IMG/VR virus record: IMGVR_UViG_2563366990_000013
Source of the DNA: a virus
Taxonomy: Duplodnaviria > Heunggongvirae > Uroviricota > Caudoviricetes
Reading direction: 5' to 3' (one strand)
DNA: 13,230 bases
Of the stretch, positions 1 to 3,000 are shown one piece after another. The position numbers are program-made. Numbering within the stretch: position 1 is the first letter of the stretch; the number at the start of each line of letters is the position of its first letter.

Positions 1-3000
1 CCCCTGGATTCCCTGTATTTTCTCCCGGACAACAATAAACAGCGGGCACAATCATCATACTAAAACGAACTTTGACTGATAAAGATAAAATCACCATTAA
101 CCAATTGATTTAAATACATAAACCCACAGGCATTTAACAAGTTCTCAGTTATCAGAAAGTTCGAATTAAGGAAGTAAACTCTCTTCCGTTTTCACCTCAT
201 TATCAGAGCGGCCAGCACACAGAATGTCACCACACCCCCCAGCCATACAAACAGCATGAAGCACATCGCACCCGCTGTGTATTTCCGCTTTCCGCATCTG
301 ATTTTTTTCTGTTCCATTCTCACTGCCACCGTTCCACTCTCATTACCCGACTCACGAATATGCATTCCGGCTACGCACGTCCAACCAGGTGCTTCACACT
401 CCTGTACTTAAGACCATTTTTACCAAGTCCCATATACAGAAAGGTGTTCACCGTCTTCGTGTTTATCCCCATTTCACGGGCAAGATGGCAGGGCTTTGAC
501 TCCCGGTACACGTATCCAAACATCACCACCATCTCGGACATCGTCAGAGGTCGCGCATACGTATTATGTACCCACTCACCATTCCGGATTTTCCTGTACG
601 TCTCCAGGCGCCCCGTAACATCTTCCGCATCAATCTGAAGATAACGGCGTCCCTGAAACATGCAGCACATCAGCCTGCCAAGGAGGGCATCACAGATTAT
701 CACCCATGACTCATCATGTGCCGGTACACTCTTCCTGTTCTCTGGTGTAAAAAACTCCCTCGCCAGTATTATCCTGTACCCCTCAAGCATCTGCTGCAGG
801 CCATACTCCAGATAACGGTTGCGGGTCGCCAGAATCACTTTCATCGCTGTCACCTGTTTCATGCTCACATGAGAAAAAACGGCAGGCAAAACTCCACGCC
901 TGCCGTCATGCTTCATGTCACTGTCAGCAATTAAAACTCAAAGTTCACACCTACGTTGTAGGACACATCGCCATCACTCGCTGCCACACCTGCTTTCGCT
1001 GCTGTCTGCTCATTGAAACGGTAACCAACACCCACGGCAACAGCCTGTTTATCACTGTACCCCCCCAGGGCAGCAGTGGCGTTGAATTTCCCCACACTGT
1101 ACGGCTGGAAAAGCCCCGCCAGCGCTGCACTCTGTGCTGCTGCACGCTTCATCTCTTCGTGATTCTCACGAATTTGACGCTGCTGGCTGTTCAGGCGTGC
1201 ATTATGTTCCTGCAACTGGCGAGTATTGGACTGAATAGCCTGTGTATTTTTAGTAACCCGGCGGTCAACGCTACCAACAGTAGCATCAATACGGTCTGTT
1301 CTGCCGGACAGAGCAACGAGACCGTCATTAACAGCAATCGTTTTTGTAGCGCCATCAGCGCTGGTCAAGGTTCCGTCCGCATTCACACCAACGGTGGTTC
1401 GGGAATCAATTTTATTCGTATTCGCAGCCGTTGCTGCATCAATGATATCTGTGCGGGATGAAAGCTCAGACAGTCCTTTCTTCTGGATCGCCAGCCCTTC
1501 TTTCTGTTCTTCCACATCTTTCGCTATAGTGACAACGCCGTCATTGATACGTAACGGCGTTACAATATCTGTCTCATTCAGAGTTAGCTTACCGTTTTTA
1601 TCTAGGCCAATTGCGCTATTTGCAGCCTCTGTAGCCAGATAACTCTGCAAAGACACGCGTTCTTTAATACTCTCTGCACTAGTTGCCACTCGCCCATATT
1701 CATCCAGACCAACATTAGTTTCCATTTCAGAGATCGCAGCAATTCTGCCAAAAAGATTCCGAATATCAGCATCAGATACAAGCTCTGTTTTAGTACCCTC
1801 GTTCTTTCCAAGAGAACCTTCTCTTTTCTGCTTGACCAGTGAATTCATTAGGTCATGAAACTCCCGGTCATACACACGATATGTACTAGTGCCATCCTTG
1901 GTAGTAACTTCTACAGTCCCATCTCTATTAATTTTTGATAATCCTTGTACAATACTTCCACTTTCAATCCCTTCAGCACCGGCAGGTACTGTTTTCCATT
2001 TAACATAAGCGGTGTCAGAATCACTATTATAAACAATGGTGTAAGTAGTTCCGTGTCTACCGACAATATCCAAGGCAGTGTAGCTATATTCACTTGCACT
2101 TGTAAAAGAACTAACACTCAACAGACCTACAACCAGAGAAGATGACAGAAGTGTCTTTGTAAATTTTTTACTCATTATGGATATCCTGTTAAATTATCTG
2201 TATACAAATCAGCCACTACACCTCATACTCATAAATAAATATGATTAATTGCGGCTTTATTCAGGATATTCCGAAAATAACCCCAAAATATTAATTTAAT
2301 GTTTTAGGATTTGTCTTACATTATTCTTGGTGTAGTCACTCAGAACCACGACTACACCACCGGAACAGGCATCAGAAAAAACTTACTCTCATCAGGCATT
2401 CTGTTTCACATCTGCTTACACTGTAATTTCTGATCAATATCACAACATTATCCGAATTTAACTGTTCAGTTCATCTACAATATTTCCCTGCGTGACTTTA
2501 TATCAGCCCCGCACTTCCGTACGGAGCATGTTCTTTACTCCACTCCCACTTTTTTGTTGTACTCGCGGTTAAACCGATCCACGGCAATTTTCATATCCCG
2601 CTCTACCGATTTCACCATCGCCGACTGTTGCGCCAGACTGAGAGTACTGTCGGCGTAAATGGCATCACGCTGTTTACGCAAATCCTTCAGTCTCTTCCGG
2701 GTATCCTGCATAAGCCCGTTCATCGACAATTTTCCGTTGTTCTCGTCAATGAACGCCGTTCTTTCTGCACCGGTCAGACTCTTCAGCTCTGCGTGATACT
2801 GCGCGACCTCCGTCATCCGGTCGTACATCTTCTGCTGGTCAGCATACGGCATCACCTCACCTGAAATTTTCCCCAGGAAGGGCACCTGCTGTTCCGGTAT
2901 ATCAATACCATTCAGCGATTTCACCGCCGCATCCGTGGTTTTGGAAATGAAGCGCCCTGTACCACCAGAGATATAGTCAATCCAGTATTTCAGTGATTCC

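Follow-up and report, generated by a model that had tools for sequence, protein, structure and literature searches.

An ORF-156-family LuxR-like gene directly behind an Eib-type adhesin gene and its terminator in prophage DNA, probably transcribed from upstream

In a 13,230-nucleotide stretch of tailed-phage DNA (IMG/VR record IMGVR_UViG_2563366990_000013; "the window" below means this whole stretch), a gene for a 157-amino-acid, LuxR-like protein begins directly behind the terminator hairpin of an adhesin gene of the Eib family. We analyzed this putative regulator gene and its surroundings. The reading that we favor, and hold to be moderately probable, is that it encodes an intact, selected, phage-borne regulator of the ORF-156 family, which belongs to a conserved adhesin module and is transcribed from upstream in two ways, by escape from the terminator of the adhesin gene (eib) and by Q-antiterminated late transcription. 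The gene layout itself is not new and has been on record in GenBank since 2000 as orf-156. According to the open reading frame (ORF) list, all genes of the window lie on the minus strand (Table 1).

The regulator gene and its protein

The longest in-frame ATG in the ORF list, at 916, gives an ORF at 371..916 of 181 amino acids, and another in-frame ATG lies at 862. Both upstream starts are confined to the lineage of the window and of prophage P-EibE, and the frame from 916 crosses the hairpin. No usable in-frame upstream start is present in the comparison loci L003, L016, L019, L005, and L006, where the frame is closed or has no start codon. In a 27-sequence alignment, family conservation starts at MKVILATRN; phrog_6585 aligns from the Met at 844 (positions 1-155/156, E value 1.2e-93); and RefSeq chose 844 in the near-identical genome of Escherichia coli 04-00955. 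We therefore took 844, which is the conserved start of the gene. This agrees with an earlier sequence-only reading of the window, which had preferred 844 and had seen that the longer starts overlap the hairpin.

The full-length profile match and the tblastn results against phage records, 99.4% identity to ORF-156E of prophage P-EibE and 68-69% to ORF-156A/C/D, place the protein in the ORF-156 family (phrog_6585). Among the 174 phage records that matched, 157 show <60% identity, and query coverage reaches 80% or more in only 20. Pairwise Nei-Gojobori comparison with seven paralogues gave dN/dS values of 0.09-0.32 at dS values from 0.09 to >1.5, and 31 columns are invariant in the family alignment of 27 homologues. 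By these measures the gene is intact and under purifying selection.

The family is narrowly distributed. Searched exhaustively with the family profile, 1.84 billion representatives yielded only 38 matches, all of them family members or fragments, and no bridge to canonical LuxR proteins. A profile scan of genome contigs found only two loci, the first from an Escherichia sp. and the second from an assembly of Xanthomonas pisi; the latter, a family fragment with 46% identity on the 601-nucleotide contig_137 of X. pisi DSM 18956 (L026), is most likely assembly contamination. As far as these searches indicate, the family is essentially restricted to Escherichia and its mobile elements. One 611-amino-acid representative (P0072) has 9 separate matches to the C-terminal helix-turn-helix region of the family profile and may be a tandem-repeat helix-turn-helix protein or an assembly artefact. 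Most phages encoding Shiga toxin (Stx) 2a carry only a truncated, 93-amino-acid remnant (phrog_2014) at the equivalent place past the tail-fibre genes, for example at L010 4944-5225 (VT2-Sakai H0139 / 933W L0123). The window copy is not among these truncated relatives.

Domain databases barely register the protein. Pfam returned a single sub-threshold match, to RcsC-ABL (E value 0.011; 16 bits against a cut-off of 25), and NCBIfam none; the Pfam GerE model (PF00196) gave no match at an E value of 1 or less, short of its gathering threshold. Across 27 family members, the Pfam scan gave scattered sub-threshold matches to GerE or sigma-70 region 4, with GerE in 1 of the 27 (E value 0.056). A sequence profile search of the PDB returned only four chains, three of the LuxR family and one GerE, all in the LTxxE...KTV register and all weak (E values of 0.15-0.21); the N-terminal domain alone gave 0 matches at an E value of 10 or less. 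Alignments of the family profile by hhalign were not significant with GadE and DctR (E values of 0.09 and 0.14) or with a 171-amino-acid LuxR protein.

The predicted structure is more informative. With the family alignment as input, AlphaFold2 gave a model with a pLDDT of 90.6 and a pTM of 0.85. The top 30 Foldseek matches in the PDB are full-length NarL/FixJ-type regulators, including RcsB, EvgA, FixJ, DesR, and LiaR, and in a comparison with viral models, CitB-type response regulators of phages ranked first. In the model, a four-helix C-terminal domain superposes on solved GerE/NarL DNA-binding domains, and the recognition helix opens with K130-T131-V132, a triplet that is invariant in the family alignment. 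A sequence bridge points the same way: a 158-amino-acid relative, 45% identical over its full length (E value 4e-45), scores 22.0 bits with Pfam GerE (cut-off 23.5; E value 1.2e-4) and carries the GenBank name "LuxR family transcriptional regulator." Because of the predicted structure and this bridge, we assign the protein to the small, atypical NarL/FixJ-class (LuxR-type helix-turn-helix) transcription-factor-like proteins, as its modeled fold indicates. The sequence-only reading had called it a LuxR-type regulator, which is right in substance by predicted fold and transitive homology, while formal Pfam membership is lacking. It had also proposed a profile search of the protein, which succeeded over the full length with phrog_6585 and failed with every Pfam and NCBIfam model.

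Distant relatives were found at L023 1777-2253 and L024 4001-4477, with 43-45% identity, 158 amino acids, and the annotation "LuxR family transcriptional regulator." The relative in L023 (plasmid pB16EC0942-9) adjoins the pap-like fimbrial genes papI, papB, and papA; that in L024 is followed by a second, canonical LuxR-type gene for 171 amino acids. The gene contexts hint that the wider family is generally tied to adhesin loci.

The N-terminal half of the model is a shortened receiver. Strands at residues 2-6, 23-27, 46-51, and 67-72 alternate with four helices and are followed by a linker and the helix-turn-helix (102-153), so that there are four beta-alpha units instead of a complete (beta-alpha)5 fold; strand 5 and its lysine are absent from the model. 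A weak hhalign match to RcsB (32 columns, E value 0.046), used for register only, pairs MKVILATRN with MNVIIADDH and puts T7 and R8 in the places of RcsB D10 and D11, the acidic pair after strand 1. T7, N9, and D52 are invariant in the family alignment, and by alignment and model Asp52 lies directly after strand 3, at the phospho-acceptor position. Measured against the phosphorylation pocket of NarL/FixJ regulators, the acidic pair is replaced, the strand-5 lysine is missing, and Asp52 is kept. The earlier claim that the receiver-like N terminus lacks the phospho-acceptor acidic residues thus stands for the acidic pair, replaced by T7 and R8, and falls for the acceptor Asp52, which is retained and invariant. 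Neither the window nor the annotated prophage of the near-identical genome contains a histidine kinase gene. With its receiver-like domain cut to four beta-alpha units and both the acidic pair and the strand-5 lysine lost, the regulator most likely acts without phosphorylation.

Terminator, conserved module, and routes of expression

The upstream gene encodes a protein of 414 amino acids that matches the Pfam family YadA_anchor (E value 1.1e-15) and, over its full length, phrog_9547. It is 56% identical to EibA over the full length, and its C-terminal 158 amino acids are 95% identical to EibE; by these comparisons it is an EibA/EibE mosaic. The 2,795-amino-acid ORF farther upstream was also considered as the adhesin and was rejected, being an LPD38-domain protein.

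The hairpin (907-878) starts 23 bases past the adhesin stop codon. The terminator scan gave 11 pairs, 7 of them G-C, with a T-run directly after them, and the minus strand reads T at 879-874 and then C-T-C at 873-871. The fold energy is -22 kcal/mol, compared with -11.1 ± 2.5 kcal/mol in 200 shuffled sequences (z score of -4.4; 0 of 200 equal), and the hairpin is beyond chance. It has the form of an intrinsic terminator, a GC-rich hairpin with a tail of six U's on the transcribed strand, and no U-tract was found for it on the opposite strand. A stem_loop is annotated at the hairpin in GenBank records AF151676, AF151091, AF151674, and AF151675. Behind the tail, the sequence reads AGGTG at 855-851, 6 nucleotides ahead of the ATG at 844-842, and the stretch equivalent to this leader is kept in Eib-linked loci as ...CATGGGGCATAAAAACAGGAAGGTG....

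The distance from terminator to start codon is 27-29 nucleotides, in line with the figure of about 27 in the sequence-only reading, and a sigma-70 promoter plus a Shine-Dalgarno leader cannot fit into it. Its statement that there is no room for a promoter behind the terminator is thereby borne out. Since 27-29 nucleotides are too short for a -35/-10 promoter and a leader, transcription of the regulator begins upstream of the hairpin or overlaps it. A promoter scan found no sigma-70-like site with at least 9 of 12 matches on the minus strand from 1938 to 82, whereas a stand-alone relative next to the hpa operon has an AT-rich upstream region with a promoter-like site matching at 10 of 12 positions; such scans performed at chance level in every region tested, so that a missing match is weak evidence and the absence of a promoter rests on geometry.

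We found the same arrangement in other loci. A YadA-anchor gene, a hairpin, a gap of 82-86 nucleotides, and the regulator occur in Eib prophages (L002-L004, L007-L009), in a different prophage, adjoining prfC (L019), and on plasmid-like contigs carrying Rep3, CcdAB, and PIN genes (L016-L018), with regulator identities down to 58%. The hairpins of L003, L004, L016, and L019 differ in sequence and all fold well, at -15 to -22 kcal/mol (z scores of -3.0 to -5.5). In the plasmid version, the hairpin is kept and the U-tract is degenerate. Across the compared loci the order is conserved: adhesin stop codon, GC-rich hairpin with U-tract, about 30 nucleotides with a Shine-Dalgarno sequence, the regulator, and often a small membrane ORF.

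Two routes of transcription from upstream can be inferred. In a lysogen, adhesin transcripts escaping the terminator would supply a low dose of regulator, proportional to adhesin transcription, a situation that would resemble the one behind the major-subunit genes of fimbrial operons. Leak-through from the adhesin promoter, the proposal of the sequence-only reading, is plausible, though unproven; because the plasmid copies have the hairpin, a weakened U-tract, and no late operon, they favor read-through as a selected feature. Q-modified RNA polymerase of lambdoid and Stx phages is established to ignore intrinsic terminators. Because the late operon and the locus share one orientation, with the locus at the distal end, this offers a second, terminator-insensitive route, which the sequence-only reading had not considered and by which Q-antiterminated late transcription would pass the terminator and reach the regulator on prophage induction. 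By analogy with regulators that end adhesin operons, the most likely targets would be the neighboring cargo genes (eib and the SPATE gene eaa) or host surface and motility genes.

Several points weigh against this reading of an intact regulator transcribed from upstream. A hairpin with six U's resembles an efficient terminator, and leak-through could be very low. No transcript data for the locus were found in the sources searched. In Stx1a phages and in phage 2B8, family members follow tail-fibre genes, and in an hpa-adjacent island one stands alone; all of these lack an upstream adhesin gene and hairpin, so that adhesin coupling is not obligatory. As to the protein, neither Pfam GerE nor Response_reg reaches the regulator or most family members at the sequence level, and the LuxR assignment has its basis in the modeled fold and in a bridge that falls just short of the threshold. 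Low TM-scores (0.3-0.48) were obtained with RcsB and EvgA over the whole chain, with good superposition for the separate domains only.

Among the alternatives, an unlikely one is that the gene serves lytic growth or induction only: a tight terminator would keep it silent in lysogens, Q-antiterminated transcription would make it, and there would be no meaningful coupling to the adhesin. The canonical terminator features and the ability of Q-modified polymerase to pass intrinsic terminators agree with this, as does the position of the locus, which in the near-identical prophage is distal to and co-oriented with Q, stx2b, and the lysis and morphogenesis genes. However, the adhesin-hairpin-regulator module is also found on the plasmid-like contigs, which have no phage late operon and whose degenerate U-tract (CUGCCGUUUCCUG) suggests that read-through matters. 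Moreover, a regulator made just minutes ahead of lysis would be of little obvious use, and Eib genes have promoters of their own that are active in lysogens (PMC4352079).

We regard it as quite improbable that the regulator has a weak promoter of its own, overlapping the terminator and independent of the adhesin. The hexamers can be read in the sequence, a -35 TTGCCT at 889-884 in the 3' arm of the hairpin, a 17-nucleotide spacer, and an extended -10 TGtGAGCAT at 869-861; a related CATAAA motif stands at the equivalent place in other Eib loci, and relatives at other sites are evidently expressed where no adhesin gene precedes them. Yet only 7 of 12 positions match, and the promoter scan did not report the site. 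Transcription starting about 7 nucleotides past the -10 would begin at about 854, inside the Shine-Dalgarno sequence, and leave no functional leader; and the -35 candidate is not kept in L004, L007-L009, and L019, where the hairpin arm differs.

The other possibility raised in the sequence-only reading, a decaying or non-functional remnant, can be given hardly any credence: the protein belongs to no Pfam or NCBIfam family, its RefSeq label is "hypothetical," and truncated copies exist in other phages (933W L0123 and Sakai H0139), but the window ORF is full length against phrog_6585 and nearly identical to ORF-156E, its low dN/dS holds over large dS, the invariant columns span all the homologues, and its structure is predicted with confidence.

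Table 1. Features of the adhesin-regulator region of the window
Feature	Positions	Strand	Basis
Eib-family trimeric autotransporter gene, 414 amino acids (the adhesin of the sequence-only reading)	931..2175	-	ORF list and YadA_anchor match
Intrinsic-terminator-like element of the adhesin gene (hairpin 907-878, U-tract 879-874, then CUC)	872..907	-	Terminator scan and sequence
Leader between terminator tail and start codon, 27 nucleotides, with Shine-Dalgarno sequence AGGTG at 855-851	845..871	-	Sequence
Gene for ORF-156-family protein, 157 amino acids; truncated receiver-like domain (residues 1-88) and LuxR/GerE-type helix-turn-helix (100-153), both as modeled; stop codon TAG at 373-371	371..844	-	Sequence and model
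orf-60-like small ORF, 57 amino acids, hydrophobic C terminus	192..365	-	ORF list; phrog_9340, E value 2.6e-12
Upstream region of the gene for an EaaA-like SPATE (S6 peptidase autotransporter)	1..191	-	L001 annotation
AT-rich region (36% GC), 359 nucleotides, upstream of the adhesin gene, presumably holding the adhesin promoter	2176..2534	-	GC content

Neighboring genes, prophage setting, and a possible Rcs link

The orf-60-like ORF starts 5 nucleotides past the regulator stop codon, and because of this spacing it is probably co-transcribed and translationally linked with the regulator. In P-EibA/C/D, orf-60A/C/D stand immediately behind orf-156; RefSeq leaves the ORF of the window unannotated in the near-identical genome. 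In the L001 annotation, the start of an S6 family peptidase gene, the EaaA-like SPATE, is the base adjoining window position 1, outside the window, and a promoter-like site lies ahead of it at 82-54. The order eib, orf-156, orf-60, eaaA is common to the window and P-EibA. On the other side of the adhesin gene, the ORF for 2,795 amino acids (2535-10922, minus strand) is an LPD38-domain large polyvalent protein in RefSeq. It is preceded at 11008-12270 by a gene for a 420-amino-acid protein of phrog_601, with no Pfam family.

At 99.96% identity, the window recurs in E. coli 04-00955 (L001), where it forms the distal cargo end of a 933W-like, Stx2b-converting prophage of about 62 kb. The prophage order is int-xis, repressor region, Q, stx2b, lysis, head and tail genes, Lom, Hok, a YadA-like gene, several hypotheticals, the LPD38 giant, the Eib-family gene, ORF-156, and the SPATE gene, with the late and cargo genes from Q onward on one strand. 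The integration site of the prophage is the rcsD-rcsB junction, where it enters behind codon 3 of rcsB (L001 11291-11320, L022 6975-8959). On the rcsD side, K-12 homology ends 8 nucleotides into rcsB, leaving an MNNVLVAF* stub; an intact rcsB is regenerated 44 nucleotides downstream of the phage integrase gene, about 62 kb from rcsD. The insertion may alter rcsB transcription in this strain.

This integration site, the presence of RcsB among the best structural matches, and RcsAB-box-like sequences upstream of eib together raise a possible link to the Rcs system. Two 14-mers with 11 of 14 matches to the consensus TAAGAATATTCCTA lie at 2305-2318 (minus strand) and 2261-2274 (plus strand). The window holds 3 such matches, two of them upstream of eib, against 0.44 expected; the boxes were noticed before they were tested. 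The position of the distal box, 130-155 nucleotides upstream of the ATG, is kept in P-EibA (L003 3773-3786) and phage GER2 (L009 3693-3706), where the sequences differ, and no such box is present in L019. The distal box overlaps an inverted repeat annotated as a stem-loop in AF151091. As read from the sequence, the boxes may be a protein-binding site or part of an RNA structure, and we treat them as a lead only.

On this basis, ORF-156 proteins might be RcsB-like auxiliary regulators or mimics which, without a phosphorylation pocket, pair or compete with host RcsB at the RcsAB-like sites about 85-145 nucleotides upstream of eib. We consider this very improbable; the evidence for an RcsB partner is circumstantial, a predicted RcsB-like fold and RcsAB-like 14-mers upstream of eib. 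If it were true, leak-through from eib would set up a positive-feedback, surface-sensing adhesin switch, which might also include the SPATE gene and motility, and with rcsB cut off from its native promoters by the prophage, there would be two levels at which the phage could rewire Rcs output.

Comparison with known systems

ORF-156A/C/D/E of the Eib prophages of ECOR-9 (AF151091, AF151674-AF151676; Sandt and Hill 2000) represent the same gene as the window regulator. These prophages have the layout eib, stem-loop, orf-156, orf-60 as in the window, and eaa (SPATE) is also present in P-EibA and P-EibC. They differ from the window in that its module sits in an Stx2b-converting, 933W-like prophage, behind the 2,795-amino-acid LPD38 protein, and includes a mosaic EibA/EibE adhesin. 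No function for ORF-156 is given in its GenBank records or in the literature searched (Sandt and Hill 2000 lay outside that search), and neither the EibG papers nor a review of island regulators of enterohemorrhagic E. coli mentions ORF-156 or a downstream regulator. Eib and related trimeric autotransporters provide immunoglobulin binding and chain-like adherence in LEE-negative, Shiga toxin-producing E. coli. Eib genes are activated by IbrAB. Growth conditions are reported to affect Eib expression, eib mRNA changing between static and shaken culture (PMC4352079). A conserved gene behind such clinically relevant adhesins, on prophages and plasmids and "hypothetical" for 25 years, would be a candidate controller of eib, the SPATE gene, and host surface and motility programs, and the dose-coupling design can be tested as terminator leak-through versus Q antitermination.

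The arrangement of adhesin gene, terminator, and low-dose downstream genes has counterparts in the papA-papH terminator, in MrpJ of Proteus, and in PapX/FocX, where a distal DNA-binding regulator tracks adhesin transcription. Co-transcription has been demonstrated for the MrpJ and PapX/FocX systems. The likeness is one of analogy and not of homology, as MrpJ is a Cro/C1-type helix-turn-helix protein and PapX is MarR-like, folds that differ from that of the window regulator.

The best structural matches of the model, for the whole chain and for each domain, are RcsB, EvgA, NarL, and FixJ, and the KTV of the recognition helix is common to both sides. Compared with these proteins, the predicted window regulator has no acidic pair, no strand 5 and strand-5 lysine, no helix 5, and no partner kinase, and its receiver-like domain has 88 residues versus about 120. 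Similar in size and build are the E. coli regulators GadE, DctR/YhiF, RcsA, BglJ, and MatA/EcpR (175-225 amino acids versus 157 here), with a degenerate, non-phosphorylated N-terminal domain and a C-terminal GerE-type helix-turn-helix; such atypical LuxR-type regulators likewise have no cognate kinase gene nearby. In GadE/DctR alignments, a T-R/K-D/N motif replaces the strand-1 acidic pair in the same register as in the window regulator. The two pass the Pfam GerE cut-off, whereas the window regulator does not, its receiver-like domain is shorter, and there is no significant sequence similarity. Several of GadE, DctR, RcsA, BglJ, and MatA act as RcsB partners, and MatA/EcpR is encoded with an adhesin operon. 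Rather than forming a new kind of system, the window regulator joins this known class of small, atypical NarL/LuxR-type regulators with a degenerate receiver.

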